Below, piece by piece: positions 24,386 to 50,638 of a stretch of 64,000 nucleotides of DNA (positions within the stretch are counted from its first letter, which is position 1; the number at the start of each line of letters is the position of its first letter). Where the stretch lies: the IMG/VR virus record IMGVR_UViG_3300021403_000005; one strand, 5' to 3'. Origin of the DNA: a virus. The position numbers and the translations under genes were made by a program. The notes under the pieces are model-generated. The model had not been told where the DNA came from. It ran no database searches and was given only the letters and a program-made list of their open reading frames with translations.

Positions 24386-25306
24386 CTATGTCTCCTGCAC
24401 ATAGTAAGTAGTGCCATCTTCAGCGACGTAATAGGTAACTCCATCCTCCGCGACGTAAGCATTCAGTGGGGTCACCGGCGGAGGTGGCACAGGAATGCTC
24501 GGCATTTGTACGAGTGAGATGTTACCACCTCGTACGGCAGGAATCTGTACCATGGATACTCGCGCGGAGACTGGTTTACCGTAAAGAACAATGCTGAATT
24601 CAGCAATGTCCTTGTTGCTTTCTACTGCATTCAGAATCCCCGTTACTTGCGGTGTGGGCAGCAATCGTGGCGGCTGCGCTAGCGCTTGCTGATAGCGCGC
24701 TTGGAGGCCAGCTAATGATCGCGTTGGTTCACTAAACCAATTATACCAGCCCTCCAATTCCACCCTTGGTGATGGCTCAACCGGAGTCGCAAGCGAGATA
24801 AATTGTTGAAGCTGGGCGCCTAGTCCTAGCTTCTGTCGAACTGGCTCCGTGAGCCAATTATAGTAGGCGAAGCTAACGATAGGCGGTTGTGCAGGCCACG
24901 CTAGGTGCGGCTCAGTGCCAATCGGGAAATGTGGCTTGATTCTTACTGGCTCAGACCATGGATAAATCCATGGCGCCGCATTCGTTGATCCAGGTTCTAT
25001 TTTCGCAAAAAACCCAGATGCGTAGGATTGCTGTAAAGCTTCCAGCAATCTCGGTCTGACGCGAACCGGCTCGGACCAAGCCTGATGCCATGGACTTTCG
25101 TAGGTCTTACCGGGTTCGATATTGGGGGTGAGGACTGGACTAAAGAGACCGGACGCAATGAGAGCAACCGCGAGAGCCGGAAGAATCTTCTGCCTTACAG
25201 GCTCAGACCAAGGTTGATGCCAGGGGCTTTCATAGGTCTTGCCCGGCTCAATAGCGTTAGAGAACCCCTCAGTCTTGGCTTGATACTGGAAGTTAATAGG
25301 CAACAT
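24386..25306 (-). CDS. WSEPVR-repeat structural protein
   Basis: Five W..[PAW]W?[ST]EP[VT]R units plus a C-terminal YVAEDG.TY tandem repeat. Confidence 0.7.
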   Translation of the reverse strand: MLPINFQYQAKTEGFSNAIEPGKTYESPWHQPWSEPVRQKILPALAVALIASGLFSPVLTPNIEPGKTYESPWHQAWSEPVRVRPRLLEALQQSYASGFFAKIEPGSTNAAPWIYPWSEPVRIKPHFPIGTEPHLAWPAQPPIVSFAYYNWLTEPVRQKLGLGAQLQQFISLATPVEPSPRVELEGWYNWFSEPTRSLAGLQARYQQALAQPPRLLPTPQVTGILNAVESNKDIAEFSIVLYGKPVSARVSMVQIPAVRGGNISLVQMPSIPVPPPPVTPLNAYVAEDGVTYYVAEDGTTYYVQET

Positions 25307-26081
25307 AGCCTATCTTCCTCGGAGAGAAATCTGGAAATTCTTGAACCACAGGAGGAAGCCCAGAATAAGTAATGACTATGACCCCCTGAATCCCAACCCC
25401 AGCGGTGCCGCCCGTAAGACAGCCCCCTCCGCCACCACCGTAATTACCACCCGCTCCACCAGTTCCAATCGCGACCCCCCCACCACCGCCTCCAGAGCCA
25501 GCAGTTACCCATTCCGTTCCTGGGGACCCGGCACCTCCGGTTCCAGTTGTCCCGCCTGCGCCTCCGGCGCCGCCAAAACCAGCATCGCCAGAACCGCCGT
25601 TACCACCAAGAGCAGCCCCTCCCGTAGCTCCGCTATTGCCAGCGCCATTCGGCCCACCAGCGCCACCCCCGCCGCCGCCATCGGTGCCAAGGCTCCCACC
25701 ACTCCCTCCTGCAAAAGCAAAAGAAGAACCTGGATTGGTAATGCTGCCACCGACACCACCAACACTATTAGAGGAAGTGCCCCCGGCCTGAAGGCCGGGA
25801 CCAGTTCCTCTTGCACCACAAATACTTGCCGCCACCCCCGCCGAACCAAGCGCAGTACCAGTGGTGCCTGTAGAGGTCCCTACAACATAAGTTATACTTA
25901 GCCCTGGAGTCAGAGAACTTACGTTCGTAGCTTTCGCGTAAGAACCGGCGCCGCCGCCAACGCCAGAGGTAAGGCCGCTAGAACCGGCGCCGACGCATTC
26001 AATGATGTTGTTGCTGCTGTTCCAATCCGATGGAACAACCCAGGTATTAATCCCGACACTTGTGAGAATAACCTTGACCAT
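25293..26081 (-). CDS. Glycine-rich tail fibre-like protein
   Basis: WVVPSDW..IIECVGAG..GGGAGSY, long Gly runs, GIQGVIVITY. Confidence 0.75.
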   Translation of the reverse strand: MVKVILTSVGINTWVVPSDWNSSNNIIECVGAGSSGLTSGVGGGAGSYAKATNVSSLTPGLSITYVVGTSTGTTGTALGSAGVAASICGARGTGPGLQAGGTSSNSVGGVGGSITNPGSSFAFAGGSGGSLGTDGGGGGGAGGPNGAGNSGATGGAALGGNGGSGDAGFGGAGGAGGTTGTGGAGSPGTEWVTAGSGGGGGGVAIGTGGAGGNYGGGGGGCLTGGTAGVGIQGVIVITYSGLPPVVQEFPDFSPRKIGYVAY

Positions 26082-26083: not shown

Positions 26084-26395
26084 TTATACATGCTCATAGG
26101 TCCGGGCGCGCTCTAAAGCATTCTTAATGCCGCGCTCTGTTTGCTCAAGCCACTTCTCAAATGGACGGCATGGTAAATTGCAGCAGCGCTGACAAATGCG
26201 CTGCATACAGTTGCGACAGAATCCTATGTCGTTAGGTCCAGGTCTTACAGGCGTATGAACTATGGAATTGCAGTGAAAGCACGAATAGGTATCGCGCTCT
26301 GTTAATCCAGCCTGAATTTCCTCGCAGTGCAGCCCAAAGCTGATACGTTGCGGTTCGGGAGATATAATCGTTGCGTAGCCCCCAGCGCGCAGCAT
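26084..26395 (-). CDS. Cys-rich zinc-binding protein
   Basis: CFHC...CRNC...CQRC...C pattern followed by PFEKWLE. Confidence 0.65.
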   Translation of the reverse strand: MLRAGGYATIISPEPQRISFGLHCEEIQAGLTERDTYSCFHCNSIVHTPVRPGPNDIGFCRNCMQRICQRCCNLPCRPFEKWLEQTERGIKNALERARTYEHV

Positions 26396-26397: not shown

Positions 26398-26958
26398 TTA
26401 GAGTTCACTAACCAGAACAGTTCCAGTTGCGGTGCCAGTATAGGCAGCCGAGCGAGCGTTCAGTGCTACGCCATTGAAGCCTGTGCCGGACGAGTTGGCC
26501 GGAACCACAAGCTCGGAACCAGGAGCCGCAACCCAGCGATAAGAAGCGCGTTGGTTAACACCAACATACCAGACTTCCTGTTTCGGCACACCCATGCCGC
26601 CAGCAGCCACAGAGGACCCCGCTGATGCGTTCATCACCACAAGAGAGCCGAAACCAGCATCGGCTTGATCGAGCATGTAGGAGCTTGAGACGCTGGATAC
26701 GGCACCAAGCCACACCCCAGTCGTGCTGGCCGTAACGCGAGCGCAATCCCACTCGATAAAATTGTCAGCAGGAGTACCATTGGTGCCGATAAGAATATCG
26801 TAGATTTTGCTGCGTTTGAGAGCTTGCGGGTTGGCTACGGTCTGAACGCTGCCTCCCGTAGAGGCAATCACCGCCAGCAGCGGAGTGTAGGTGGTGGACA
26901 GGGTGACCTGAGCTATTCCTGCCGGAATCGTTGAATTGGTAACGCCGTATTGCGCCAT
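26398..26958 (-). CDS. Ser/Thr-rich beta-sandwich structural (decoration-like) protein
   Basis: 186 aa; YDILIGTNGTPADN, VNQRASYRWVAAPGSELVVPA; few charged residues. Confidence 0.65.
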   Translation of the reverse strand: MAQYGVTNSTIPAGIAQVTLSTTYTPLLAVIASTGGSVQTVANPQALKRSKIYDILIGTNGTPADNFIEWDCARVTASTTGVWLGAVSSVSSSYMLDQADAGFGSLVVMNASAGSSVAAGGMGVPKQEVWYVGVNQRASYRWVAAPGSELVVPANSSGTGFNGVALNARSAAYTGTATGTVLVSEL

Positions 26959-26969: not shown

Positions 26970-27902
26970 CTATCCTTGGCTGCCCGGTAGGTTATGACTT
27001 TGTGCCCCACCGAAGATCGAAATAACGTAGTCGTTGTCCTCAAGGGCGCCCTCAAGGTAGGTAACCTGTTGCGCTGTACTATCGCGTTGCTGCCGCAGCG
27101 ACATGATGCGATCCTGAATCTCTTTCTTGCGAGCCAGAAGCTTGCGACCCAACATCGTCACCTCCGAATAACCATAGAGCGCCGGAGGCTGCATAATGTC
27201 GGATTCGTAGGGTGCGGTGATCTTAACGCCGCGCTTCTGTGCTTCCGTGAAGAAATAATAGGCACCAGGGCGCTGGAGGATGTACTCATCGCGTGAGGCC
27301 ATGTCGATGCCGTACAGCGCGATCTCTTTCGCACCCTGCATCATCGCAAAGGCCATCATCCAAGAAAAAGACGAGGTGAAGAAATATGGACCGAATTCCT
27401 TTACTGCTTCCTTCATCGGAAACGGAATCGCGTTGGGAACAAACTCTTGGCTCTGCATGTAGATCGGAAAGGTTTGCTTATTGAGCCATTCCAGATAGGG
27501 GGCGCCGTAATGAGCGTTCTCGGGCCACATCATGTTGGCGTGAATCTCGAACCAAGCATCAATGCGCTCTAGCCCAACCATGTTGCCAGGAGAACAAGCC
27601 CAGATTTTCCAAGAGTGGTCTTTGAAGGGAGCCAACAGTCGCGAGCTTGGCGCTGTACCAATAAGAGCGACTTTAAGAGGAAGCGGTTCGGCAGCGGGAA
27701 CTACATTGATGACTTGAGGCAATTCAGGACCGCCTCCCGTAGCAGTAACAAAGCGCCACGGCGGCTCACCCGGCTCCTTAATCGGCTCGTGGGCTTCCGT
27801 GACCTTCATGGGAATCGGGAACAGCGGCGTGGGTTGCCCGGCCACATGCCCGTTGCCATTAAGCTGGTCGTTCGTGGTGGGCGTAAGCTTAGGCTGCATC
27901 AT
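26970..27902 (-). CDS. Sialyltransferase-fold protein (CstII/GT42-, GT29- or Maf/DUF115-like); candidate CMP-nonulosonate transferase
   Basis: KVALIGTAPS and WKIWACS parallel CstII KKVIIAGNGPS and FDVFRCN; FTSSFSWMMAFAMMQGAKEIALYGIDM parallels CstII ITSGVYMCAVAIALGYKEIYLSGIDF (CstII motifs recalled from memory). Confidence 0.7.
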   Translation of the reverse strand: MMQPKLTPTTNDQLNGNGHVAGQPTPLFPIPMKVTEAHEPIKEPGEPPWRFVTATGGGPELPQVINVVPAAEPLPLKVALIGTAPSSRLLAPFKDHSWKIWACSPGNMVGLERIDAWFEIHANMMWPENAHYGAPYLEWLNKQTFPIYMQSQEFVPNAIPFPMKEAVKEFGPYFFTSSFSWMMAFAMMQGAKEIALYGIDMASRDEYILQRPGAYYFFTEAQKRGVKITAPYESDIMQPPALYGYSEVTMLGRKLLARKKEIQDRIMSLRQQRDSTAQQVTYLEGALEDNDYVISIFGGAQSHNLPGSQG

Positions 27903-28282
27903 GACCCCGTTATCTGCGCGCTAAGAAGCTGTACCGTCTGTCCTGCCGTAATGAGCGTAGAATTCAGCCCATTGGACAAGATTATGTCCGCTCCTGATAA
28001 AGGAATTCCTACAGTAAGTCCACTAATCATGACGTTACCGGCACCGTCTTTTATTACTCCGGCCGTGGCCGACCCAGTATTAGCAGCCGAAGGATCAAGC
28101 AACGTCCCAATAAAGGTCAGCACTCCGGCATTAGCCGTTCCACATGGATTGGCCAATGCAATAGTGGATAGTATCGTACCACCAGCTAACAACTGAAGAG
28201 TGCCATTGCCCGCATCGTCAATGGCCGTGATAACTCCATTCAAGCGATCTGTAATGGCGGTTTGACTATAGTTTACGGGCAT
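27899..28282 (-). CDS. Small structural protein
   Basis: RLNGVITAID..G.GTLQL...ILSTIAL..P, ATAGVIKDG.G...ISGLTVG; ATGA coupling to the transferase gene. Confidence 0.65.
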   Translation of the reverse strand: MPVNYSQTAITDRLNGVITAIDDAGNGTLQLLAGGTILSTIALANPCGTANAGVLTFIGTLLDPSAANTGSATAGVIKDGAGNVMISGLTVGIPLSGADIILSNGLNSTLITAGQTVQLLSAQITGS

Positions 28283-28289: not shown

Positions 28290-28730
28290 CTAGCCTCCTT
28301 CTCCTTGAAGGATCGTTAGCGTGGTTACGTTGCTGCTACTGTTGGTGCTGGAAAGGCGCAGTGCTGCGGGTGGCGGCGAAAAGACCCCAGAAATCCCATC
28401 AGGGAAAATGTTGCTGGATGTAAAGTGAAGCGCGGGGGCGCCAGCCGTGCTGCTGCCTATAACACCCGTGTAGGGATAGCTGCTGATACCAGACCAAATA
28501 CCTATCGAGGATGGCAGGCCAGTAACAACACCAGTGGGCGGATAGGTAGTCGAGTAGGCAGAAAGCATAATGTCATCCAGACTATACTGGATGGTATAAT
28601 CCCCGGTCGCGAGGCTGGAGCTTGTCGTGAGCCGCCACAGAACAGGCTTGCCACCACGCCAATCAAGCGCAATCGGCTTGGAAGTTACCGCACCGGAGGA
28701 AGCTGAGACTGTGACGAAAGCGTAGGGCAT
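28290..28730 (-). CDS. Ser/Thr-rich structural protein
   Basis: 146 aa; 43 Ser+Thr by hand count (about 29%). Confidence 0.65.
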   Translation of the reverse strand: MPYAFVTVSASSGAVTSKPIALDWRGGKPVLWRLTTSSSLATGDYTIQYSLDDIMLSAYSTTYPPTGVVTGLPSSIGIWSGISSYPYTGVIGSSTAGAPALHFTSSNIFPDGISGVFSPPPAALRLSSTNSSSNVTTLTILQGEGG

Positions 28731-29256: not shown

Positions 29257-30306
29257 TTACACCGAGCTAAATTGCGCGGCTCCAAAGAGATTGTAGTTGT
29301 TGGTCGGGCTGATATTGTTGAAGCCACTGTAAGATGACAGTGCCGCATCGGCAACACCGATCATCGGATTCTGGATCATCAGGATTCGCATCCCACCCGA
29401 GGTGCTAGAGGCCACCGACGAGACATAAGTGCCGCGAACGTCACCATTAGTTGAGGTAGCCGTTGGCAGCGATGAGCCGTACACATGAGCACCGCTGCTC
29501 AACGTAACCAATGCAGCCGAACTCGTGGCGCCAGTCCAGATGGTGACGTAGCCAGGATGCTGAAGCAGGAACGGGAATCCATAAGTATCCGCCGTGCCGA
29601 CCACGACATTGGTGCTGGCCAGGGTCCCTGTGGAGTTAACCGGCGTAATGGACGTGATGTATTTATAGGCTTTCTTGCTGATAACGGGAACGCCGCCGGT
29701 AGCGCCAGCAGTAGTCGAGCCACCCGTTGTACCGGCAACCGTTTCCGTAACCTTGAACCCGTAAACATCCCGCCCGGCAATCGACCAGTTGATGCCACCA
29801 TCGTTCTGGGACGAGCCAGCAATGGAAATACAGCGGCCACAGACCGAAGCCGGATTCCAAATCTGGATGGAGTTGGCGCTGCCAAATGAGATACCAGCCG
29901 CCGTAGAGCCGCCACATGGCGTATCAATACAAAGCAGCGTGCCGGTGATGAGCTTGCCAGTCTCAGGGGCGATAATGCACGATACCGCCGTAACAGTCAC
30001 CCCACTGGCCGTCAGTGTCAGCGCGGTTCCGTTCGTTGGGACCTGCGTGGTAGCGATGTTGTTGGACGAGATCGTGCCGGGGATATAATCAACGATAGCC
30101 GTCTGACCCCAGAACCCGAAGGTCGGCTGCGTTGCCGACTGCCCAGGCTGGTAACCATAGCCGTACTGCGCTCGCGGGTCGAGCATCCCCGAACCAAGAT
30201 CGTTCAGGGAAGGACCGCGATGCTCGTTGTATTCACCCTGGCCGCCGCTAGCACTTACGGTGATGCCGTAAGTAATAGCCGGACCTGCCATTGCATCAAT
30301 AGTCAT
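29257..30306 (-). CDS. Ser/Thr/Gly-rich structural protein downstream of the capsid gene
   Basis: 349 aa; GRDVYGFKVTETVAG, KKAYKYITSI, VGTADTYGFPF, TSTNGDVRGTY. Confidence 0.7.
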   Translation of the reverse strand: MTIDAMAGPAITYGITVSASGGQGEYNEHRGPSLNDLGSGMLDPRAQYGYGYQPGQSATQPTFGFWGQTAIVDYIPGTISSNNIATTQVPTNGTALTLTASGVTVTAVSCIIAPETGKLITGTLLCIDTPCGGSTAAGISFGSANSIQIWNPASVCGRCISIAGSSQNDGGINWSIAGRDVYGFKVTETVAGTTGGSTTAGATGGVPVISKKAYKYITSITPVNSTGTLASTNVVVGTADTYGFPFLLQHPGYVTIWTGATSSAALVTLSSGAHVYGSSLPTATSTNGDVRGTYVSSVASSTSGGMRILMIQNPMIGVADAALSSYSGFNNISPTNNYNLFGAAQFSSV

Positions 30307-30318: not shown

Positions 30319-31233
30319 TTACTGCGTGGGGAACGTCCCATAGACCGAACGCCAGTCGTAGTAAGTGGGCACATAGCGCTGGTAGCCCTTGACCAAGAGG
30401 TTGTCCGTGGTGAACTCCACCGACATATCCATCTCGAAGGCTTTACGGTTGAAGAAGATAAGCCCATCGTGATTGGTGAGGATGAACCACGCATAGGAAG
30501 AGGTCAGGTAATCCCAGACCATAAAGCCTTCCTTGAGCGAGTCGTTCATGCCCAGAATCGCGTTGATATCGTTCTGTGCCGTGCCGGGACGAAGCTCGGA
30601 GCGGAACAGGCGTAACGCAATCGGCTCAAGATTCGGAGGCACAAGTACCTTGCGGCCACGCGCATGAATCTTCAGGCCCGCGTTGTCCTTCCAAGTGGAG
30701 CGGATGGTAATGAGAGCGTTCAGGAGTGAAGTCTCATTAAGGTCCACGTCCGGCGATGGCTGGTTGGCAATCGTCGCTTGGTCGATGGGATGAGCAGTAC
30801 TGAACAGAGAAACACCGTCGCCCTGCACCGCCGTATTGAAGGTCGTGCCCGTATTGAACACGTTCGCAGCATAGATTTCTTCGGTTTCCTTGAAGGATTC
30901 CATCAGACCATCGTTCGATGGTCCGAACTCTGCCTTGTAAAGGTTGTCGTCAATCGCCTTGCGAGTGATCGCGTAGCCAAGGCCAATCTCGAAATGCTCG
31001 GCGTTATAGACGAAGCGCTGACCCGCCGAGTTGTCGAAGGAGGTAGGCGCACCTTCCTGCTTCAACATCGCAAAGCCGAGGTAGCGAACCGCAGCACGCC
31101 GTTCGAGCGCCATGCTGGAATCGGTCTGCCGGAAAATCTTCGGCCATTGGCGTTCTATCATACTGTACTTGCCCGAGATGCCCCAAAGGCCCGGCAGCAA
31201 CAAATCGCGTATCTGACTTAACGCGACTGGCAT
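30319..31233 (-). CDS. Major capsid protein
   Basis: 304 aa; LLLPGLWGI.G.Y, KQEGAPTSFD, YAITRKAIDDNLY, SFKETEEI.AANVFN, GDGVSLFSTAHP, VPPNLE..A.RLF.SELRPGTAQNDINA; AAAGGA RBS. Confidence 0.85.
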   Translation of the reverse strand: MPVALSQIRDLLLPGLWGISGKYSMIERQWPKIFRQTDSSMALERRAAVRYLGFAMLKQEGAPTSFDNSAGQRFVYNAEHFEIGLGYAITRKAIDDNLYKAEFGPSNDGLMESFKETEEIYAANVFNTGTTFNTAVQGDGVSLFSTAHPIDQATIANQPSPDVDLNETSLLNALITIRSTWKDNAGLKIHARGRKVLVPPNLEPIALRLFRSELRPGTAQNDINAILGMNDSLKEGFMVWDYLTSSYAWFILTNHDGLIFFNRKAFEMDMSVEFTTDNLLVKGYQRYVPTYYDWRSVYGTFPTQ

Positions 31234-39295: not shown

Positions 39296-40924
39296 TCAGA
39301 AGGGATAGAGGGCGGCTGTTGCCGATGGAGAACTATAAGCTAGTTCGTCCGCAGAAGCCATTGACTGTTCCTCACGGCGCAAAGCAAAACCCGACTCTCG
39401 CAAGTAACGAAGCGCTTGCGATGTGGAATCCACCAAGTCGTCCCGCGCACCTTTCGGGAAAAGCGCACACTGATCTATGACCATATCGGCCCAACTCTTG
39501 TCCGGGGCGTAGATCATCTCATCGGCAAAGAGATGCTGGATGGCGTGGACCCTGGCCACCTTGTCGCCGTACTTGGTGGGGTCCAGAAGTTCCACCCCCA
39601 GCTTGCCAGTGCCACGTAGCAATCGGTGAAGTTCATGCCCAATCGAGAGGCCGCTGGCCTTTGATTCCACCAAGAGCCTATCGACCGGGAATCTGGCCTC
39701 AACCGTGGTCACCGTACTGATCGTGCATGTCTGTATAACCTTTTGAACTAACTCGTAAAATTGCAACCGTTCCTGCCAAGCATAGATCAGCATAACCTTG
39801 GGATTCCCGGCCACATCGCGAAACACCCCCCAGATGGTCAGGGCTGAGGCGTCGTTTTCCTGCTTGATGGTGTAGGCGGTATCCAGGGAGGCGAGGATGT
39901 ACTCGAATCCAGGGTACTTCCCCTTTTCCCACATCTGCCAGAAATGGCGCTTAATAATTGAGCCACCACGCGGTTCCGGGGTCTGCTGGTACTGTCCGGC
40001 CCAGGCGTGAGGCCCTTTGTCGCGCTCCAGGCCCTTGCAGATTTCCTGGGTGAATCGCTCGGGCCAAGCTAGCTCGTAATCCGTAATTCGAGGGTCCTCC
40101 CAGAATACATCCTTGTCTTGCACATCTTTCACATCATCCCCAACAAATGTCTTAATACTACCATCAGGCGCATAGGCATTAACATACACCTTGGGAATGT
40201 ACTCCATGGGAATCCAGAGGTGGGTGTAGCCCATCTCCCGGCTGAGTGCGATTCCGCTAACATCGTCCTCGTGGGTGCGCTGCTGGATGACAGCGATGAT
40301 GCTCTCTTGGGGATTGTTCAGGCGGTCGGGCATGATTTCTGTAAACCACATCTTGGTGGTTTCTCGAACTAGCTCCGATTCCACATCAAATGGGTTATTC
40401 GGGTCGTCAATGATGATAATGTCGGCCCGTTCCCCCGTACCGATGCCGCCGACCGAGGTAGCCAGCTTCCAGCCGGTCTTGTCGTTAGCGAACTTGATCT
40501 TGGTGAATTGCTCATTGGAAATACCAAAGCGGTTGCCCCACATGCGCCTGTAGCGCTCGCTCACCACGATATTGCGGCAACGCATATTATCGCGTTCCGT
40601 CAAATGGTTAGAGTAGGCGGCGCACATGAATCGCGTCCACGGCTTGTTCTGCGGCCCCCATATCCAGGCAGGCCAGAACACGTCAGTCAGCAGCGACTTG
40701 GTAAAACCCGGCGGCACATTAATAAGGAGGCGCTTGATGTGCCCCTCGGACGCTGCCTGAAGGTGATCGGCAATGGCTTCAATGGCCCAGCCCCGAATAA
40801 ATGGGATCGCTGGCTCAACCACCGGCCACACGTACTCGGCAAAGTCGATGAGGCTACCTTCATACTTGCGATTGACCAGAAGCTTGTCGATTTGCCGGTA
40901 GGCGGTCTTGACCAGTTCGCTCAT
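39296..40924 (-). CDS. terL: Terminase large subunit
   Basis: LLINVPPGFTKS (Walker A region), IIIIDD (Walker B), YILASLDTA, VESKASG, GARDDLVDSTSQAL (RNase H-like nuclease). Confidence 0.95.
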   Translation of the reverse strand: MSELVKTAYRQIDKLLVNRKYEGSLIDFAEYVWPVVEPAIPFIRGWAIEAIADHLQAASEGHIKRLLINVPPGFTKSLLTDVFWPAWIWGPQNKPWTRFMCAAYSNHLTERDNMRCRNIVVSERYRRMWGNRFGISNEQFTKIKFANDKTGWKLATSVGGIGTGERADIIIIDDPNNPFDVESELVRETTKMWFTEIMPDRLNNPQESIIAVIQQRTHEDDVSGIALSREMGYTHLWIPMEYIPKVYVNAYAPDGSIKTFVGDDVKDVQDKDVFWEDPRITDYELAWPERFTQEICKGLERDKGPHAWAGQYQQTPEPRGGSIIKRHFWQMWEKGKYPGFEYILASLDTAYTIKQENDASALTIWGVFRDVAGNPKVMLIYAWQERLQFYELVQKVIQTCTISTVTTVEARFPVDRLLVESKASGLSIGHELHRLLRGTGKLGVELLDPTKYGDKVARVHAIQHLFADEMIYAPDKSWADMVIDQCALFPKGARDDLVDSTSQALRYLRESGFALRREEQSMASADELAYSSPSATAALYPF

Positions 40925-40994
40925 TAAAAATCCAGCGGTGGAAAACTCGACAACAATGATTGTCGCTTTCCGGGGCAGCTTATACCGAATCACA

Positions 40995-41351
40995 ATGGAA
41001 GAGAATGCTAAGACCTCACACACCGTCATCTACAATCGGCTTTGGAATATCCAACCGGGCGAACAGATTATCTATTTCGTGGGATTCTTGGATGCCGAAC
41101 GCGATCCGCAACCTTCAGAGAGTCCGCTCAATAAGATCGCCAATCTCGCCTACCAGCTTATGCTGGAAGGTCGCGTGAGGCTTACGCAGCGACGCATCAT
41201 GGCGCCAGTCGTTCATGGCGGCATGGTCGATTGGCATCGTGGGGTCGGACAGGGCTTTGAATATATCGCTACGGGGACCACACCCAGGAAAGAAGCGATG
41301 AAAGTACCCGAAAGAACTCTCTACAACCCCCTCAGCAAGGTACTCAAATGA
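40995..41351 (+). CDS. Phage hypothetical protein, first gene of the plus-strand block
   Basis: PGEQIIYFVGFL...ANLAYQL..EGRVRLTQRR...FEYIA; ATGA coupling to the next gene. Confidence 0.6.
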   Translation: MEENAKTSHTVIYNRLWNIQPGEQIIYFVGFLDAERDPQPSESPLNKIANLAYQLMLEGRVRLTQRRIMAPVVHGGMVDWHRGVGQGFEYIATGTTPRKEAMKVPERTLYNPLSKVLK

Positions 41352-41569
41352 ACCGAAGCGATCTCGATGATTTGGAAGAGAAGATCATGGACGAATTCGC
41401 CAAGCGGCGCGCTCTCGGTGGATTCGATGCTAATGCCGCTACTATTCTGCTCTTGATTCGATGGGTTTACGAACTCACACGACACCTTAAGGATAAAGAG
41501 CCAAAATCCAAGGAAGCCGAAGTCGATCTTGCGGGAGCCAGAGTCGAACTACGCCCGAAGAAAAAATGA
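41348..41569 (+). CDS. Small hypothetical protein
   Basis: ATGA overlaps at both ends. Confidence 0.6.
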   Translation: MNRSDLDDLEEKIMDEFAKRRALGGFDANAATILLLIRWVYELTRHLKDKEPKSKEAEVDLAGARVELRPKKK

Positions 41570-42084
41570 CCCCTCCGTTAAGTACGTTCAATCTGGTCTT
41601 GATGCCATATCAGCAGCGCCTCCTGCGTCAGCAACACGTTGATTGGCTCAATGATAAAGAACTCATGAAGTATTCCGAGCAGCGCCATCGTAAGCATACG
41701 ATGGAGACGCAGCGCGAATACCTTTGGACCTTTCCTAAGACCTCGCACATCTGGCTCATTGAATTTGGCCCACCGCCAGTCCCGGAACTGCGAGCCATCG
41801 GCACCATCACAGCCTACATAGACCAGCCCAACAAAGTTGCCAATATGGGCATCTTGCTTGGGGAAGAGAAGGGCTATGGCCATGGTTTGGCAGCATGGTC
41901 AGCGGTGATGGAGTTTCTATTCGCAGATGGAATCCGCAAGGTTGAGGCTGGATGTATGGCCGTTAATGAGCCGATGCGGTTGCTTGCCACCAAAGCCAAG
42001 ATGAATGTCGAAGGGGTTATTCCTGAGCATTATCTATTCGAAGGTAAGCCCTGCGATCTCATTAACTATGGGAAAACCAAGTGA
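41566..42084 (+). CDS. RimJ/RimL-type GNAT N-acetyltransferase (PseH-like role)
   Basis: HVDWLND.E.MKYSEQRH, IGTITA, MGILLGE.KGYG.G..AW, RKVEAG.MA.NEPM. Confidence 0.8.
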   Translation: MTPPLSTFNLVLMPYQQRLLRQQHVDWLNDKELMKYSEQRHRKHTMETQREYLWTFPKTSHIWLIEFGPPPVPELRAIGTITAYIDQPNKVANMGILLGEEKGYGHGLAAWSAVMEFLFADGIRKVEAGCMAVNEPMRLLATKAKMNVEGVIPEHYLFEGKPCDLINYGKTK

Positions 42085-42653
42085 AGGTTCTGCTGCTTTC
42101 GCCCTACCCAGAGCGCCTTGCAGATATTTTGCGAGATGATGATGTTGTTCCTCTCGTCTCCAAAATTCACTGGCCAAACGTCGATTTCGTTATCTCCTAT
42201 GGACACCGCGAGATCATAAGAGAGCCGTACTTATCCGAATACAAAGGACGGATAATAAACATCCACCTCAGCCTATTACCATGGAATCGCGGCGCCGATC
42301 CGAATTTCTGGGCGTGGTTTGATAATACTCCACATGGCGTCTCCATCCATCACATAGATGATGGTATAGATTCTGGACCGATCATCTTTAACGGCACAGT
42401 TGATATGACCCTCGATCCAATCGGAACACTGGAGTCATCATACGGCATCTTGCAGAACCACGCCGTATATCTCTTTGGTATTCTCTGGGAAAACTTTAAG
42501 TACAAAGGTAAGCTGCCCCGAGGCCGCCCTAATGAGGGGGGCACCTACCATAGGTCCAAAGACAAAGAGCAATGGATGGCGCGATTCCCGCTCGGCTGGA
42601 AAACTCCTGTCGCAGATGTAATGGCACTCGGAAGAAAAGCCAATGGCCGCTAG
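42081..42653 (+). CDS. Sugar N-formyltransferase (Formyl_trans_N only)
   Basis: VISYGHREII, IINIHLSLLPWNRGADPNFW, GVSIHHIDDGIDSGPII; 190 aa with no tRNA-binding C-terminal domain. Confidence 0.85.
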   Translation: MKVLLLSPYPERLADILRDDDVVPLVSKIHWPNVDFVISYGHREIIREPYLSEYKGRIINIHLSLLPWNRGADPNFWAWFDNTPHGVSIHHIDDGIDSGPIIFNGTVDMTLDPIGTLESSYGILQNHAVYLFGILWENFKYKGKLPRGRPNEGGTYHRSKDKEQWMARFPLGWKTPVADVMALGRKANGR

Positions 42654-43329
42654 CCAAACCGAGAGATTCCTGCATGGCGCTGGCGATGATTACTACATGC
42701 GCAATCGCAATGATTTCGGCCAAAAGGAAAAGGACCCGGTTCTCTCGATACTAAAAGCCACCGAAATTAAGCCTACATCCATACTGGAAATAGGCTGCGC
42801 TAATGGCTGGCGCCTCATGAAGCTCAAGGGACTCTACAACTGTCATGTACGAGGCATTGATCCCTCGACTATGGCTATCCAAGAAGGATCGAAGGATTTA
42901 GGTGGCGATCTACAGGTGGGGGTCGCCCAACACATACCATTTGATGCCAACAGCTTCGATCTGGTGATATTCGGCTACTTTATGTTTCTCTGTGAACCAA
43001 ATTCTTGGTTCCAGATCATGGCTGAGGCCAATCGTGTTCTAGCAGATAAAGGGCACATCGCCCATTACGATTACATCAGCGCCCGACCTTTGGTTTGGGA
43101 ATACGCCCCAGCCAAAGCGTCCATTCGCGAAAAGGAATGCCGAGCCTGGGTCTATGACCACGCCAAAATGTGGCTCAGTCACCCCGGCTACTTTGCCGTC
43201 GCAGAAGGCACCGGACCTTGTGAATTAGGTAAAACCGTTGCCTGCCAAGTTATGGTCACATTGTTACAGAAAGACATGACTCGTTCGTTTCATAAACCAG
43301 ACGGCACGATACCTGAGTTTACACAATGA
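42643..43329 (+). CDS. Class I SAM methyltransferase (nonulosonate-cluster type)
   Basis: F..GAGDDYY.RN, ILEIGCANGWRL, GIDPS, FDLVIFG. Confidence 0.85.
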   Translation: MAASQTERFLHGAGDDYYMRNRNDFGQKEKDPVLSILKATEIKPTSILEIGCANGWRLMKLKGLYNCHVRGIDPSTMAIQEGSKDLGGDLQVGVAQHIPFDANSFDLVIFGYFMFLCEPNSWFQIMAEANRVLADKGHIAHYDYISARPLVWEYAPAKASIREKECRAWVYDHAKMWLSHPGYFAVAEGTGPCELGKTVACQVMVTLLQKDMTRSFHKPDGTIPEFTQ

Positions 43330-44279
43330 CCAAGACATTCGGGATTCTCGGCCACGGTTCTATTGGAAAGCGCCATGCACAGAATCTCGTGCGGCTTGGT
43401 CACAAGGTCCTAACCTTTGATCCAAGCAATCCTATCCCCAAGTCGGCGCCACCATTCATAGCAATGCACGATGAACAAGACTTAATTAACAATGCCGATG
43501 CTATTCTCATATGCAGCCCCACGGCACTGCATTATGAGCATCTCGTTAAAGGCCTCTTTGCCAGGAAACCGATCTTCGTTGAAAAGCCCATAGGAGATAC
43601 CGAGAAGTGTCACTTCTTGGGATCGGTCATGGGACGCGATCCATTTATGGTTGGCTACAATCTGCGCTTCCATTCCTGCGTTAAGAAAGCCAAGGAGTGG
43701 CTCGACAACGGTATTCTTGGCCAGATTCAATGGGCGAGCTTCGTGGTGGGGCAGAAGAACGACAAGCTCGACTACCTCCGCGACGGTGTAATCCTCAACT
43801 GGTCGCATGAGATTGATCTGGCGCTGTACCTACTGGGTCCAGCGAAGGTGTTACAGGCTTCCGCTCGTGTCACAGGTTCCGGTGAGGATATAGCCGACAT
43901 TTGGCTACAACATGACAGCGGCGCTCGATCATCCATCCACTTGGACTATGTAACCAAGCCTGAGATTCGTGAGGCTTGGATTGTCGGCGCCAATAACAGG
44001 ATTGGTATGGACCTTGTTGGGCGCAATGCCTCGCTAGGTGAATACGTCCATCGCGGAGACGACAGCTTCGATCAGAACTATGTAGAGGAAATACGGGCTT
44101 TTATTGACCGCATAGATGGCAAGGAGACAATCGGATGCAACGCAAAAGAAGGGTTGGCCGCCCTAGAAATATGCCTCCAAGCGCGCCGCCTAGCCGGACT
44201 ATCGAGCGAGACGTTCGCCCACTCGATTCCTTGGACGCCGCCTTCGGAATCTACACCGACCCCGAAATCCAACTCCTGA
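43326..44279 (+). CDS. Gfo/Idh/MocA NAD-dependent oxidoreductase
   Basis: GILGHGSIGKRH, ICSPTALH, IFVEKP, VGYNLRFH, SHEIDLALYLLG. Confidence 0.9.
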   Translation: MTKTFGILGHGSIGKRHAQNLVRLGHKVLTFDPSNPIPKSAPPFIAMHDEQDLINNADAILICSPTALHYEHLVKGLFARKPIFVEKPIGDTEKCHFLGSVMGRDPFMVGYNLRFHSCVKKAKEWLDNGILGQIQWASFVVGQKNDKLDYLRDGVILNWSHEIDLALYLLGPAKVLQASARVTGSGEDIADIWLQHDSGARSSIHLDYVTKPEIREAWIVGANNRIGMDLVGRNASLGEYVHRGDDSFDQNYVEEIRAFIDRIDGKETIGCNAKEGLAALEICLQARRLAGLSSETFAHSIPWTPPSESTPTPKSNS

Positions 44280-44430: not shown

Positions 44431-44595
44431 ATGAAAGCCTCTAAATACTCCGTCCAATATACCGATCACGGTACAAAGCAGGAACACTGCTCGATCTGCA
44501 AACATTACGTCTCGCCTGTGATCTGCGCTGTGGTTGAGGGCCGCATCAAGGCTGGCGGCTGGTGCAAGAAATTCGAGAGGAAAAACGAAGAATGA
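44431..44595 (+). CDS. HiPIP-like [4Fe-4S] protein lacking a Tat signal
   Basis: KASKYSVQY...HCSICKHY...CAVVEGRI..GGWCKKF; four Cys in HiPIP spacing; ATGA overlaps at both ends. Confidence 0.7.
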   Translation: MKASKYSVQYTDHGTKQEHCSICKHYVSPVICAVVEGRIKAGGWCKKFERKNEE

Positions 44596-46631
44596 AGGTC
44601 TTAGCGATTGCGCAGGCTCGGATGGGTTCAACGCGCGTGCCCGGCAAGGTTATGCGGAGGATGGGAGAGTATAACCTTCCAGTCTTACATTGGGTGTACG
44701 ACGCCCTTATCCAAGCTGAAGGCATCGACCAAGCCGTTATAGCTACCTCTACTTTGTCAGAGGATAATATTATTGCGGGGTACTGTAGAGATACCGCGAT
44801 TCCATTCTTTCGTGGCAGTGCGCTGGATGTGCTGGACCGATTCTATCAATGTGCGCTTCGTTATGATGCTGATATAGTCTTGAGATTAACCTGCGACTGC
44901 CCATTCCTTGACCCTCAAGTTATTGGCGAAGTCATCAAGCTTAGGAACATAACCAATGCCGATTACACCTCAAACATTGATCCCCCAAGCTACCCCGATG
45001 GACTCGATGTTGAATGCTTCACCTTCAAGGCTTTGGAAGCCGCTTGGGAAGAAGCGACTCGACCAACAGACCGAGATTGCGTTACTCAGTTTATCGTTCG
45101 TAATCGCCATCGCTTTAGCGCTGCTAATCTACGGTGTCCTCTGCCTGGGCTAGATAAGGAGCGCTGGGTTCTCGATACCGAAGCTGACTGGAACTTCTGC
45201 AAAGCAGTAGCGGAGCATATCCGCTGTGGTGGTCAACCCTATCTTAAAATACTCAACATCCTCGATGAACATCCCGAGATTCGTAAACTCAACCCAGGAA
45301 TCCGCAATGAGCGATTCTTTGAAGCAATCAACACAGAGCGATTACCCCCACGAACATTTGAGCGGACTGCGGGAGTATTCAAGCGAGCCATCAAGACTAT
45401 ACCATTTGGGGCGCAGACATTCTCGAAGTCTCACCTTCAGTTTCCGCGCGATCATAGTCCTCTTTATTGCAGCCATGCTGATGGGGCTAGGCTCTTTGAT
45501 GTTGACGGAAACGATTACGTTGACTTGGTTAACGCTGTGCTGCCTGTTGTACTTGGCTACCGTGATCCTGATGTGGATGACGCAATTCGACTGCAACTGG
45601 ACCGAGGAATTTCCTTCAGTCTCGCGACTGAGCTTGAAGCGGAGCTATCGGAAACCCTCTGCCGACTTATACCGTGCGCACAAGCGGTCAAACTCGGCAA
45701 ATCAGGAACGGACGTTACCACTGCTGCCATTCGTCTAGCGCGAGCCTATACAGGCAAGAGCCACGTTCTGTTGTCCGGCTATCATGGCTGGGCAGATTGG
45801 TCTATGGCGGCGAGTCAGCGCGACGCTGGGATTCCGTTGGCCACCAAGCTTCTATCACACAAATTCGAGTACGGTAACTACAACGACGAAGAACTGAATC
45901 GCTGGATTGGCGATGCCGCTGCGATCATTGTCGAACCGGACAGCAATCCAGAATACCTAAAGTTCCTGCGTGAAGCCTGCGACGAACACAATGTCGTTCT
46001 GATCTTCGATGAAATCATTACCGGCTTCCGTTATCACATCGGTGGCGCCCAAGCGTACTGGAACGTAACACCAGATTTAGCCACCTTCGGCAAGGCGATG
46101 GCTAATGGGATGCCGATTTCGGCCCTCGTCGGCAAGCGTGACATAATGGCTCGCATGTCACCACCGAACAACATCTTCTATTCCGGCACGATGTTCGGTG
46201 AAACCCTCTCTATTTCTGCCGCAATAGCTACAATCAAGAAAATGGAAAAAGAGGATGTTATTGGCTACCTCTATCACGTTGGGGCAGAGATTCATTCTGA
46301 AGTTGCCCCAAGCATTGCTTTCCATGGCCTTCAAGACGTTATCAAACTAGACGGCCACTGGACACGCAAAATCATCAATATCCACGACCACAGGAACGCC
46401 ACTAAGGAAGAAATCAAGGCTCTGTTCATGCAGGAGATGATCCAGGGGGGCGTGCTAGTCATTGCCTCGCACAATGTCTCCTACGCTATTAAACAGAACG
46501 AGGTTAAGCGCATCCTCACTGCTTACAATCGAGCTTTGACCACGATCAATCAGGCTTTGGAGAACAACAACATCTCCGACTACATAGATGCTCCGCTCAT
46601 CGGTGTGGCGCCGCTGCGGACCACAGCATGA
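44592..46631 (+). CDS. SpsF/PseF-like cytidylyltransferase fused to a class III (GSA-aminomutase-like) PLP aminotransferase
   Basis: N-terminal QARMGSTRVPGKV, FRGS.LDVLDRFY, RLTCDCPFLDP, LDTEADW; C-terminal DVDGNDYVD, LIFDEIITGFR, ATFGKAMANG.PISA. Confidence 0.9.
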   Translation: MKVLAIAQARMGSTRVPGKVMRRMGEYNLPVLHWVYDALIQAEGIDQAVIATSTLSEDNIIAGYCRDTAIPFFRGSALDVLDRFYQCALRYDADIVLRLTCDCPFLDPQVIGEVIKLRNITNADYTSNIDPPSYPDGLDVECFTFKALEAAWEEATRPTDRDCVTQFIVRNRHRFSAANLRCPLPGLDKERWVLDTEADWNFCKAVAEHIRCGGQPYLKILNILDEHPEIRKLNPGIRNERFFEAINTERLPPRTFERTAGVFKRAIKTIPFGAQTFSKSHLQFPRDHSPLYCSHADGARLFDVDGNDYVDLVNAVLPVVLGYRDPDVDDAIRLQLDRGISFSLATELEAELSETLCRLIPCAQAVKLGKSGTDVTTAAIRLARAYTGKSHVLLSGYHGWADWSMAASQRDAGIPLATKLLSHKFEYGNYNDEELNRWIGDAAAIIVEPDSNPEYLKFLREACDEHNVVLIFDEIITGFRYHIGGAQAYWNVTPDLATFGKAMANGMPISALVGKRDIMARMSPPNNIFYSGTMFGETLSISAAIATIKKMEKEDVIGYLYHVGAEIHSEVAPSIAFHGLQDVIKLDGHWTRKIINIHDHRNATKEEIKALFMQEMIQGGVLVIASHNVSYAIKQNEVKRILTAYNRALTTINQALENNNISDYIDAPLIGVAPLRTTA

Positions 46632-47569
46632 AGAAAGTCTTAATTTCGGGTGGCACAGGTTCGTTTGGCAATGCGTTCGCACGACGCATTATAGCCCATA
46701 ACCCTGAGCGCGTGGTGATCTATTCGCGCGATGAGCAGAAGCAGGAAGAAATGGCACGGCGATTCCCGCAGCGATTCTTTCGATTCTTCCTAGGAGATGT
46801 GCGCGACCAGGACCGCCTCGAATACGCTATGCACGACATTGATACGGTTATCCATGCAGCAGCACTAAAGATTGTGCCTGCTTTGGAGTATAACCCCACC
46901 GAATGTGTTGCGACCAATATCGGTGGTGCCCAGAATGTCGTTAGAGCCGCCATCAACAGCGGAGTTAAACGAGTCATCGCCCTGTCCACGGATAAGGCGG
47001 TCCACCCGATCAACCTTTACGGGGCATCGAAGCTGGCGGCGGAGAAAATCTTCATTGCCGCCAATGCTCTCGCTGCGGGCGCAACTGCTTTCAGCGTTGT
47101 ACGTTACGGTAATGTCGTGGGTAGCCGTGGGAGCGTTGTTCCTTATTTTAAGTCTCTTGCCGCCGCCGGGAAGCCACTGACAGTTACCGATACGCGCATG
47201 ACGCGGTTCTGGATCACGCTGGATCAAGCGGTCGATCTGGTCCGGCTTGCTCACACCAAGATGACCGGGCGAGAGATTTACATCCCGAAGATTCCGTCCG
47301 TAAAGATCATGGACTTGGCGCTGGCCATATCTCCGGCATGGGAAGTCACCGGCATCAGGCCAGGAGAGAAGCTGCATGAGTGTCTCCTGACCAGGGATGA
47401 GGCGCGCGATACGCTCGATATGGGCGATTACTACATTATCACCCATCCTGGATGGCAAGGTCAGATCGGCTCTGGAATCCCAGTCACGCCTGACTTTACC
47501 TACACCTCTGACACCAATCATCAATGGCTCAGTATAGAACAACTCAAGGAATCGCTCAATGAAGCCTGA
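46628..47569 (+). CDS. pseB: UDP-GlcNAc 4,6-dehydratase (inverting), PseB
   Basis: GGTGSFG, YSRDEQKQ, GDVRD, HAAALKIVP..EYNP.E, LSTDKAVHPINLYGASK, VRYGNVVGSRGSVVP, TRFWITL, GIRPGEKLHE. Confidence 0.92.
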   Translation: MKKVLISGGTGSFGNAFARRIIAHNPERVVIYSRDEQKQEEMARRFPQRFFRFFLGDVRDQDRLEYAMHDIDTVIHAAALKIVPALEYNPTECVATNIGGAQNVVRAAINSGVKRVIALSTDKAVHPINLYGASKLAAEKIFIAANALAAGATAFSVVRYGNVVGSRGSVVPYFKSLAAAGKPLTVTDTRMTRFWITLDQAVDLVRLAHTKMTGREIYIPKIPSVKIMDLALAISPAWEVTGIRPGEKLHECLLTRDEARDTLDMGDYYIITHPGWQGQIGSGIPVTPDFTYTSDTNHQWLSIEQLKESLNEA

Positions 47570-47738
47570 GAACATCATAAACGAAATCACTCAGGTTCGA
47601 TCACGCAATAATTTTCTCTGGATGAGTCTCCTTACATTAGCCATGAAGGCCAAGCCTAAAGAAGCCAAGAAAATCTTACAGGCTATCAACGAAAACGATA
47701 AGGAGATTTCCGGGTGGCTAGAAAAGCTCCAACACTAA
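47559..47738 (+). CDS. Unlisted 59-aa helical protein between pseB and pseC
   Basis: Hand translation: MKPENIINEITQVRSRNNFLWMSLLTLAMKAKPKEAKKILQAINENDKEISGWLEKLQH; AAGGA RBS; overlaps both neighbours. Confidence 0.65.
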   Translation: MKPENIINEITQVRSRNNFLWMSLLTLAMKAKPKEAKKILQAINENDKEISGWLEKLQH

Positions 47739-48829
47739 AGCGGCTACCTAAATTCTTCACGGTAGGATCACAGGAGAGAAGGAATGTGCAACGCGCGCTT
47801 GGGCGGCAGCTATCTGGCTATGTTGGCGGTATCCATAATGCTGGTTACTGGGTTGACCGCCTCTCCGTCGAGTGGACCAACACGTTTCGATGCCGATACG
47901 CTATACCCTGCAATTCAGCTACCTCGGGTTTGTTGGCTTGTTGCATGGCAGCTTCTATTGGCCCCGGAGATGAAGTTTGGGCATCCTCGTACACTATGTC
48001 CGCGTCTGGGGCCTGTGCCAAAGTATTGGGTGCCAGTGTTAAATTCATCGACATAGACTTGGTACGCTATTCTCTCAATAGCCCTACCTCTTGGACAACA
48101 AAGCCAAAAGCGATCATCGTTACCAACCTATTCGGGCACCCCGCCTACTTAGCGCAGATACGCAGAACATGCGACGATAATGGCATCGTCATGATCGAGG
48201 ATAACGCTCAATCACCCTTCGCAATGGAGAACGGTAAATATGCAGGGACCATCGGACACTACGGCGTCTTTAGCTTCAACGTCCACAAGCACATCCAATC
48301 TGGAGAGGGAGGAGTGGTTACGACAAACGATGCAGAAAGTGCTGAGAGAGTTAGAAACGCAGTTAATCATGGAGAACTGGCTGCCAAAAACCCCTCCATC
48401 GGACTCAACCTGCGAATGACGGAGCCAATAGCTGCGATTGCCTCGGCGCAGCTACATAGGGCGCACGACATTATCGAGAATCGGCGCCATCTGGCAGATG
48501 AACTTACCGACGCTGCGAATCAATCGGCCTACCTGATTCCTCCGGTGGAATCGAAGGGCTGCAAGCATGTCTATTACATTTGGGCGTGCAGGGTATTGGA
48601 TGGCAAGCGGGAAGCGTTCGTGACCTTTCTCAACAAGCACTGCTTTCCGGTACGTGCTGGCTATTCCATACCTTTGCATAGGTTATTCAAAACCAACGAT
48701 CAGTGTCCACTGACCGAACGCATGGAGGACAGGGAACTGGTCAGCTTCGAGATTTGCATGTGGCGCCCGAATACCAGCGAAGTATCCAAGATGAAGCGCA
48801 TCATCAAGATAGCAGGAGAAAGCCTATGA
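47714..48829 (+). CDS. pseC: DegT/DnrJ/EryC1/StrS sugar aminotransferase (PseC role)
   Basis: CNSATSGL, IEDNAQSP, FSFNVHKHIQSGEGGVV (PLP Lys), GLNLRMTEPIAA, HVYY. Confidence 0.85.
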   Translation: MARKAPTLKRLPKFFTVGSQERRNVQRALGRQLSGYVGGIHNAGYWVDRLSVEWTNTFRCRYAIPCNSATSGLLACCMAASIGPGDEVWASSYTMSASGACAKVLGASVKFIDIDLVRYSLNSPTSWTTKPKAIIVTNLFGHPAYLAQIRRTCDDNGIVMIEDNAQSPFAMENGKYAGTIGHYGVFSFNVHKHIQSGEGGVVTTNDAESAERVRNAVNHGELAAKNPSIGLNLRMTEPIAAIASAQLHRAHDIIENRRHLADELTDAANQSAYLIPPVESKGCKHVYYIWACRVLDGKREAFVTFLNKHCFPVRAGYSIPLHRLFKTNDQCPLTERMEDRELVSFEICMWRPNTSEVSKMKRIIKIAGESL

Positions 48830-49215: not shown

Positions 49216-49544
49216 AAATCGCAATAAAAAAACGCAACCAAAGGATCAAGCCCGCACAAAAGAAGGCAAGCGACGACAAGGTTGCCAAGTACATTGTTAA
49301 GCTTCTAAGTAGAATCGAAAGTCTTGAAAAGGAATTAGGGCAATGCAAAGAGCAGCTTAATCAAAACTGGTATCACCGAGAGAAAAGAGAACAGCGGTTA
49401 GCAAAACTTTTGACTCCAGACCAAAAAGAAGCTGCCAGAATATCTGGCATTTCTCAGTATGAATATGCCGTGCGGTTTATGGAAATTCAATACGCCAAGA
49501 CTGCCACCAATATATTAACGGGTAATCTTGATGATGATCGCTAA
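49212..49544 (+). CDS. Coiled-coil hypothetical protein
   Basis: ATGA overlap; LTPDQKEAARISGISQYEYA resembles the C-terminus of the scaffold protein. Confidence 0.6.
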   Translation: MKIAIKKRNQRIKPAQKKASDDKVAKYIVKLLSRIESLEKELGQCKEQLNQNWYHREKREQRLAKLLTPDQKEAARISGISQYEYAVRFMEIQYAKTATNILTGNLDDDR

Positions 49545-50535
49545 GACCGAGATCGCTCAGTGTGCCTTCCCTTATATTGTTTGTGAAATATCAGGCAATC
49601 ACGGTGGTAGCCTAGAACGCGCCAAACAGCTTATCAAAGAAGCCAAGAAAGCTGGAGCGGCTGCGGTCAAGACGCAATGCTACAACGCTGATACATTGAC
49701 GTTGAACTGCAACAAGCTGGACTTCATCGTACAGGGCGGTCTATGGCAGGGCAAGACGCTATACGAACTTTATCAATCCGCTTGTACTCCACCGGAATGG
49801 CACAAGGAGCTATACAGTGTCGCCCATGACGAAGGCATTACGATCTTTTCTTCGGTGTTCGACCGCAGTGGGATCGACCTACTCCAATCTCTCGGCTGTC
49901 CGGCATATAAGATTGCGAGCTTTGAAGTGGCCGACCTACATCTTATCGAGTACGCAGCTAAGACAGATAAACCAATCATCATCTCGACGGGCCTCGCCAA
50001 CAACCAAGAAATAAGAGAAGCGCGCGAGGCGGCTGGTCCCAACTCCGCGTTCCTGCATTGCACCAGCGAGTATCCAGCCGATACCGACAATGCCGATATG
50101 TGGCGCGTCCATAGGATATACGAACTGCTCCACAAAGAGTGCCCTGTAGGGCTGTCCGATCATAGCAGCGGGCATCTGTTGCCGATCATGGCGACCGCGA
50201 TGGGGGCGGCGATCATTGAGAAGCACCTCAAACTGCGATTGGCGCCCCCAAGCGAGGACGATGCGTTTAGCCTGACACCGGCCGAGTTTGCGGGCATGGT
50301 CACGGCCGTCAAGCAAGCCTGGAGCGCGGGGCTGGAGCATGAGCAGCCTGCGAATCCATCACGGCAATTCCGCAGAAGCCTTTATGTTATCGAGGACATA
50401 CGAGAAGGCGAGCAGTTCACCGAACTGAACATACGCTCGATCCGGCCGGGCTTTGGAATGCCGCCGAAGAACTATTCCAAGATGCTGGGGAAAAGAGCCA
50501 AAAAAGATTATAAGCGCGGCGACCCCTTATGGTAG
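49531..50535 (+). CDS. pseI: NeuB-family nonulosonate synthase with SAF domain, PseI
   Basis: EISGNHGGS, VKTQCY..DT, LYELY, IFSSVFD, YKIASFE, IIISTG, LHCTSEYP, VGLSDHS, IIEKH, FRRSLY, RSIRPGFG. Confidence 0.9.
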   Translation: MMIAKTEIAQCAFPYIVCEISGNHGGSLERAKQLIKEAKKAGAAAVKTQCYNADTLTLNCNKLDFIVQGGLWQGKTLYELYQSACTPPEWHKELYSVAHDEGITIFSSVFDRSGIDLLQSLGCPAYKIASFEVADLHLIEYAAKTDKPIIISTGLANNQEIREAREAAGPNSAFLHCTSEYPADTDNADMWRVHRIYELLHKECPVGLSDHSSGHLLPIMATAMGAAIIEKHLKLRLAPPSEDDAFSLTPAEFAGMVTAVKQAWSAGLEHEQPANPSRQFRRSLYVIEDIREGEQFTELNIRSIRPGFGMPPKNYSKMLGKRAKKDYKRGDPLW

Positions 50536-50542: not shown

Positions 50543-50638
50543 CGTGGGCGAGTGAAACGGATACCCGGTCAGTGACCGGGGGATCATTTCAGTCTCATAA
50601 ACTGAAGATAGTGGGTTCGACTCCCATGCCCGCAACCA
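50543..50638 (+). tRNA. tRNA with CAT anticodon (Met or Ile2), encoded CCA, and a 17-nt hairpin inserted in the D-loop
   Basis: Acceptor CGTGGGC/GCCCGCA, discriminator A, CCA; D-stem GTGA/TCAT; anticodon arm TCAGT-CTCATAA-ACTGA; T-arm GTGGG-TTCGACT-CCCAT; 96 nt total. Confidence 0.8.

Follow-up and report, generated by a model that had tools for sequence, protein, structure and literature searches.

Nonulosonic acids are known on the flagella, lipopolysaccharides (LPS), capsules and S-layers of bacteria and archaea and as phage receptors; we know of no phage that makes them as decorations for itself, and our literature search found no earlier description of nonulosonates on phage virions. Maf proteins (PF01973; structure 5mu5), which are at least 600 aa long and consist of three domains, place pseudaminic acid (Pse) or legionaminic acid (Leg) directly on Ser/Thr residues of flagellin, and the GT42 sialyltransferases (CstII and Cst-I of Campylobacter jejuni and the Pasteurella multocida enzyme; PF06002) use sugar acceptors of lipooligosaccharide (LOS). 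Related in fold are the MptE-type 6-hydroxymethylpterin pyrophosphokinase (HPPK), the N-domain of thiamin pyrophosphokinase (TPK) and SteA, which are ATP-dependent pyrophosphokinases or a division regulator and have no link to nonulosonate genes. As for virions, mycobacteriophage glycosyltransferases encoded next to structural genes are described as decorating capsid and tail proteins (Freeman et al., 2023, Cell Host Microbe, as cited in PMC12619734). Here we consider a 64,000-nucleotide stretch of viral DNA (IMG/VR record IMGVR_UViG_3300021403_000005; "the window") and within it the gene at 26970..27902, "the target", which quite probably encodes a transferase of a CMP-ulosonate (CMP, cytidine monophosphate), of the CMP-pseudaminate type. 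The window is most of a ~75-kb SU10-type podophage from soil metagenomes, an assignment made because of its SU10_adaptor matches and its relatives, which measure 65-77 kb and have direct terminal repeats. The explanation toward which we lean combines a Maf/GT42-fold transferase, a phage-made CMP-pseudaminate donor and a virion-protein acceptor. The target resembles Maf in fold and in its linkage to nonulosonate genes; unlike Maf, it is viral, has only 310 aa with neither of the domains that flank the Maf core at its N- and C-terminus, belongs to a block of head genes, and would act on a virion protein. As far as the citing source describes them, the mycobacteriophage enzymes match its proposed role as phage-encoded glycosyltransferases adjoining structural genes and differ in having other folds and using host nucleotide hexoses, whereas here a whole phage nonulosonate pathway accompanies a sialyltransferase-fold enzyme; glycosylation is reported there and predicted here.

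First, the predicted structure makes the assignment to a Maf/GT42-type fold firm. AlphaFold2 models a Rossmann-like core at a pLDDT (predicted local distance difference test) of about 90, followed by a single helix (residues 250-297). A Foldseek search of this model against the PDB returned the GT42 sialyltransferases CstII and Cst-I as best matches (E 3.5e-6), followed by GT29 enzymes and, ranked below both, MptE-type HPPK and TPK, which bears out the sialyltransferase-like fold proposed by a sequence-only reading of this DNA. The four sequence strings quoted in that reading are likewise all present in the translation (KVALIGTAPS at residues 77-86, WKIWACS at 98-104, FTSSFSWMMAFAMMQGAKEIALYGIDM at 175-201 and LLARKKEIQDRIMSLRQQRD at 255-274). 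Sequence libraries gave little beside this. The target had no meaningful match in Pfam, NCBIfam or PHROGs, and three family profiles found no significant match among PDB sequences; in one of these searches six CstII entries came out on top at E of only 0.8-1.1, over the TS...GID block. PF06002 (CST-I) did not match the target at E<=1, nor any of 45 diverse family members at E<=0.1. PF01973 (cut-off 34.6 bits) was absent from the target and, at E<=10, from the 12 other records searched; its best score was 14.1 bits, at the end of the model, inside the ortholog of genome G003. The Atlas lists PF01973 on 16-35% of members in neighbouring viral clusters, which we take as a lead only. All sequence-level signals to known proteins converge on one block, FFTS...A.A...G..EI.LYGID, which aligns with RITSGVYMCAVAIALGYKEIYLSGIDF of CstII, with the P. 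multocida enzyme and, in the G003 ortholog, with the end of PF01973. By their sequence criteria the target belongs to neither PF01973 nor GT42, and both the Maf flanking domains and the GT42 catalytic His are missing; within the Maf/GT42/MptE superfold it is best seen as representing a new family, specific to phages, of which we likewise found no earlier description in the literature.

The same fold occurs alike in GT42 (modified GT-A/Rossmann-like), in the Maf central domain and in MptE-HPPK/TPK, and one may therefore ask whether the target is no glycosyltransferase at all and instead a nucleotide-dependent enzyme or regulator from the MptE/TPK/SteA branch, a rival already considered in the sequence-only reading. 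We regard this as quite improbable. Alignments of that branch to the target are shorter (121-147 residues), that of TPK covering 121 residues versus 161-164 for Maf and Cst-I, and the G-I-D-M-A-S motif of the target has a single Asp where TPKs have two. There are no folate or thiamin genes among the 58 scanned open reading frames (ORFs) of the window. Such an enzyme would also leave the phage's sugar without any transferase, and it would leave unexplained both a near-obligate link to NeuB and cytidylyltransferase genes and a fusion to the latter, which are set out below.

The conserved residues suggest where catalysis may occur. Within the core, the motifs are GTAPSS (82-87), WxIWxCS (98-104), FExH (118-121), TSS...GID (176-200), EYxxQ (206-210) and ESD (233-235). 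Among 45 members with identities of 33-63%, the residues G82, W98, W101, E119, H121, T176, S177, G198, D200, E206, Q210, S234, Y243 and G285 are kept in 85% or more, and the same 14 residues are kept in 11 members of distinct phage lineages. The members compared come from at least six phage backgrounds; because of this conservation, the motifs are not chance. In Maf, the essential residues are Asp, Ser and Asp/Asn (D272/S334/D357 in CbMaf, D285/S356/N379 in GkMaf; bioRxiv 10.1101/2020.06.03.131540), and those of MmMaf are D324/E415. The 23-residue spacing from Ser to Asp/Asn equals that from S177 to D200 in the target, both of them near-invariant in the family, a match by spacing rather than superposition. 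D115, 62 residues before S177, matches the spacing of the Maf Asp, yet it varies, whereas E119 and H121 are invariant. The catalytic base of GT42 is a His that follows the G-I-D strand (His188 in CstII, His202 in Cst-I; PMC4202792). Residues 200 to 247 of the target include no His, nor is one conserved there in the family, whose sole invariant His, H121, precedes the TS motif. Should the target share this chemistry, E119, H121 or E206 is the likelier base, and E119, H121, S177, D200 and E206 together would form the putative active site; these mappings to CstII and Maf rest on spacing and conservation. The membrane-association region of GT42 enzymes is replaced in the target family by a long and conserved helix at the C-terminus, in which K254, E261 and G285 are conserved family-wide. 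Hydrophobic residues occupy 0.67 of the a/d heptad positions of this helix versus 0.32 elsewhere, a moderate heptad pattern, and the coiled coil that the sequence-only reading placed in this region is therefore plausible; as that reading suggested, it might dock the enzyme on proheads. The unit common to the family spans residues ~76-300, preceded in the close clade by an extension with the short motifs KLTxTxND (99/116 relatives) and HEP (78/116).

The family comprises 855 close proteins and 3,444 clusters at 50% identity, and it is almost entirely viral: across 185,579 bacterial and archaeal species genomes, one family profile found no relative and another only two weak matches, on contigs binned into metagenome-assembled genomes. 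Some phages carry two tandem paralogs (L086 1625-2506 and 2998-3732; L105 1070-2474), resembling the multiple maf genes of bacterial flagellin glycosylation islands. In an HK97-type phage, a weak PhyH-dioxygenase-like N-terminus is joined to the family domain (P0262, L061 4894-6408). An Atlas cluster of 105 viral proteins (442 aa) has Methyltransf_11 fused to it, and in L045 a methyltransferase gene directly follows the family member. The annotation "type 11 methyltransferase" on the homolog of Microcystis phage Mvi-Yong1342-1 probably stems from such fusions.

Second, the donor is suggested by the company that the gene keeps. The operon at 41.5-50.5 kb, on the opposite strand (Table 1), is a pathway to CMP-activated pseudaminic acid, probably tailored. 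Its GNAT and CTP_transf_3 genes score above the Pfam cut-offs, with no match to the PseH or PseF equivalogs. The aminotransferase half of the CTP_transf_3 fusion is GSA-aminomutase-like, the cytidylyltransferase half scores closer to KdsB than to PseF models, and the fusion is kept in all 13 related genomes (ORFs of 673-790 aa). Taken with the genes for the formyltransferase, the methyltransferase and the Gfo/Idh/MocA oxidoreductase, this KdsB-leaning fusion suggests that the product is a pseudaminic acid derivative of a non-standard kind. No other recognisable glycosyltransferase family occurs among the scanned ORFs of the window, which makes the target the only candidate user of the phage's sugar.

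This association extends well beyond the window. NeuB and CTP_transf_3 are present in 14 of 16 complete phage genomes that carry a family member, including 10/10 near-complete relatives and 4/4 near-complete genomes of a second, more divergent sample, in which there are phages of 45 kb and 57 kb whose own family members are just 33-38% identical. As a background rate, a PseI homolog was found in 2 of 50,697 deposited phage records. In three loci (L048, L062 and L056) nonulosonate genes adjoin the family member, and the lineages concerned are independent: in L048 (portal identity 25%) genes for a class-III aminotransferase, CTP_transf_3, NeuB and PseB lead straight into the portal and then the target homolog, and L062/L063, with a T7-type portal and capsid, carry PseB-like, DegT, CTP_transf_3, GNAT and NeuB genes directly upstream. 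The sugar operon of L048 also contains an S-adenosylmethionine (SAM) decarboxylase homolog (3213-3737), and its transferase trio is followed by a 736-aa Sortilin-Vps10/BNR (Asp-box) repeat protein (11694-13904), of a propeller type typical of sialidases. One protein, P0255, is a direct fusion of CTP_transf_3 (E 4e-27) to the target-family domain, and the preceding gene is a PseB homolog. Two phages, both complete at 41 kb, depart from this pattern: G014 and the Microcystis phage, which lack NeuB and cytidylyltransferase, keep all the conserved residues, and would need a host donor; Maf enzymes accept CMP-Kdo (3-deoxy-D-manno-octulosonate) and CMP-Neu5Ac (N-acetylneuraminate). Because of the pathway, the co-occurrence, the CTP_transf_3 fusion and the lack of another transferase, we infer transfer activity with CMP-Pse as donor, and this donor chemistry is strongly supported by context.

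One step of the pathway is missing. No Glyco_tran_28_C or PseG match occurs in the window ORFs, and TIGR03590 is absent at E<=1 from 5/5 complete relatives; the PseG step may be supplied by the host or by an analogue that goes unrecognised. Could the target be that analogue, as a nucleotide-sugar hydrolase replacing PseG or an enzyme of some other nucleotide-sugar editing, without performing the final transfer? The gap recurs in the relatives and the fold binds nucleotide sugars, but the target lies 14 kb away from the sugar operon, within head genes, and conserved family members occur in complete phages without any Pse genes. PseG works on a UDP-sugar, but CMP is what the related transferases bind; the cytidylyltransferase is the last enzyme of the biosynthesis, and a fusion to it suits the following step and not an earlier one; and the phage would again be left without a transferase. 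We therefore consider such a biosynthetic role a shade more improbable still than an MptE-like one.

Third, the acceptor is approached through the position of the gene. The start codon of the target (ATG, 27902-27900) overlaps the stop codon of the upstream gene (TGA, 27901-27899) as ATGA, confirming the overlap and supporting the coupling that the sequence-only reading had described, and the next gene begins 11 nt past the target's TAG stop. The target sits within an uninterrupted same-strand train in which the large terminase (39296..41029) is followed by portal, capsid and tail genes, and promoter-like and terminator-like sites are no more frequent at 23.0-41.6 kb than in shuffled sequence. 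A soil metatranscriptome contains the target region, with a single contig spanning the junction of the target and the next gene; since the two modules are evenly covered and the data consist of contigs, DNA carry-over is possible. The close clade keeps the order major capsid protein ... 127-aa protein, target, 186-aa protein and Cys-rich 103-aa protein, and a jelly-roll gene comes after the target there as well as in the divergent loci L048, L059 and L060. Distant SU10-like phages have the family gene between SU10_MCP and SU10_adaptor, an HK97-type siphovirus has it between the capsid gene and head-completion genes, and in other phages it adjoins terminase or portal genes. That unrelated architectures repeatedly place the gene in the head module is the strongest argument for a substrate in the virion.

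In the mechanism that we propose, the target would be translated within the late head/virion gene train, take the CMP-activated pseudaminic-acid-type nonulosonate from the phage's own operon and pass it to an acceptor, most likely Ser/Thr hydroxyls of at least one exposed virion protein encoded alongside, as Maf O-glycosylates flagellin. If the target is a CMP-ulosonate transferase, then a virion protein is a reasonably likely acceptor. The proteins flanking the target are poor in charges and contain 20-30% Ser+Thr (window median 12%), but such richness is common in exposed phage proteins. The fold alone is unable to tell a CMP-sugar transferase from a pyrophosphokinase. Of the virion-assembly substrate proposed from the sequence, then, the head-gene placement holds in several architectures, and the acceptor itself is plausible.

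The same chemistry could be directed at the host, the acceptor being an LPS or capsule precursor, flagellin, pilin or another host protein, and such transfer might hide receptors on infected cells and debris or change the host surface. All donor-side evidence fits this equally, CstII and Cst-I among the known relatives modify LOS and Maf modifies flagellin, and family members of phages without nonulosonate genes adjoin terminase, not capsid, genes. We nevertheless judge it unlikely, given that the gene is embedded with a start/stop overlap in a head gene train and in head modules of several phage architectures, that the species genomes lack this almost purely viral family bar the two binned contigs, and that a late gene of a lytic phage would leave little time for envelope remodelling. 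Most unlikely of all is that phage DNA is the acceptor, carrying a nonulosonate-decorated modified base, and we have rejected it. GRP/RGRP AT-hook-like stretches do occur in the N-terminal linker of 25/116 close relatives, but the target and most relatives lack them, no thymidylate-synthase-like hydroxymethylase was found in the 10/10 near-complete relatives, and the gene lies in the late structural block, not the replication module.

Table 1. Features of the window, with the target and its parts, neighbouring genes and the pseudaminic acid operon
Feature	Position	Strand	Remarks
Target gene	26970..27902	-	310-aa phage-family enzyme, Maf/GT42 (sialyltransferase-like) fold; candidate CMP-pseudaminate transferase
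Target, N-terminal extension (residues 1-75)	27678..27902	-	predicted disordered; restricted to close clade
Target, catalytic core (residues 76-247)	27162..27677	-	Rossmann-like domain
Target, C-terminal long helix (residues 250-297)	27012..27155	-	moderate heptad pattern
Upstream gene, ATGA overlap	27899..28282	-	127-aa Ser/Thr-rich (20.5%) virion structural protein, phrog_3758
Downstream gene	26398..26958	-	186-aa Ser/Thr-rich (21%) jelly-roll protein; candidate acceptor or partner
Third gene of conserved trio target/jelly-roll/Cys-rich	26084..26395	-	103-aa Cys-rich protein
Possible acceptor	28290..28730	-	146-aa protein, 29.5% Ser+Thr
Possible acceptor	29257..30306	-	349-aa protein, 24.4% Ser+Thr; immediately after major capsid gene
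Major capsid protein	30319..31233	-	phrog_371; Mu-like gpT Pfam match
GNAT acetyltransferase (PseH-like step)	41566..42084	+	
Formyltransferase (tailoring)	42081..42653	+	
SAM methyltransferase, Methyltransf_11/25 (tailoring)	42643..43329	+	
Gfo/Idh/MocA oxidoreductase (tailoring)	43326..44279	+	
CTP_transf_3 cytidylyltransferase fused to class-III aminotransferase	44562..46631	+	would supply CMP-activated sugar
PseB, UDP-N-acetylglucosamine 4,6-dehydratase (inverting)	46628..47569	+	TIGR03589 433.2 bits, cut-off 407.75
DegT-family aminotransferase, best match PseC/LegC	47714..48829	+	PseC 142.7 bits, under equivalog cut-off 423.5
PseI, pseudaminic acid synthase	49528..50535	+	TIGR03586 401.2 bits, cut-off 340.25

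The rest of the window holds several further features. HNH/NUMOD4 homing-endonuclease genes at 31344-32102 (+), just upstream of the capsid gene, and at 14910-15461 (+) lie in opposite orientation inside the minus-strand structural train (HNH_3 in three ORFs, NUMOD4 in two). A Gly-rich protein of 262 aa (33% Gly, 20% Ser+Thr), encoded downstream of the Cys-rich protein (25293-26081, minus strand), has a BLAST match in one relative only. Three consecutive giant ORFs of 1193, 1040 and 1321 aa (3461-14633, minus strand) have almost no family matches and are presumably internal or ejection proteins of the podophage. Pfam CHAP and GDSL-lipase matches also occur among the scanned ORFs. ARAGORN found no tRNA anywhere in the window, including 50543-50638 at the end of the sugar operon.

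Finally, it is worth considering what the proposal would mean for tailed phages at large. We hold only tentatively its broadest form, in which a widespread phage-specific family coats the particles of SU10-like, T7-like and HK97-like phages with sialic-acid-like sugars by O-glycosylating head or fibre proteins directly as the particles assemble, using phage-made pseudaminic derivatives or, where the pathway is absent, host CMP-ulosonates. If true, glycobiology would acquire a protein-O-nonulosonate transferase of compact size (about 230 aa) whose donor pathway is defined and for which there are candidate acceptors, the many hypothetical phage proteins of this family would gain a function, and the costly 9-kb sugar operon would gain a reason. 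Thousands of environmental phages would then carry an acidic, sialic-acid-like coat, a new virion surface chemistry that could alter how they adsorb, which hosts they infect, how stable they are in soil, how lectins or immune systems recognise them, and how susceptible they are to host defences.
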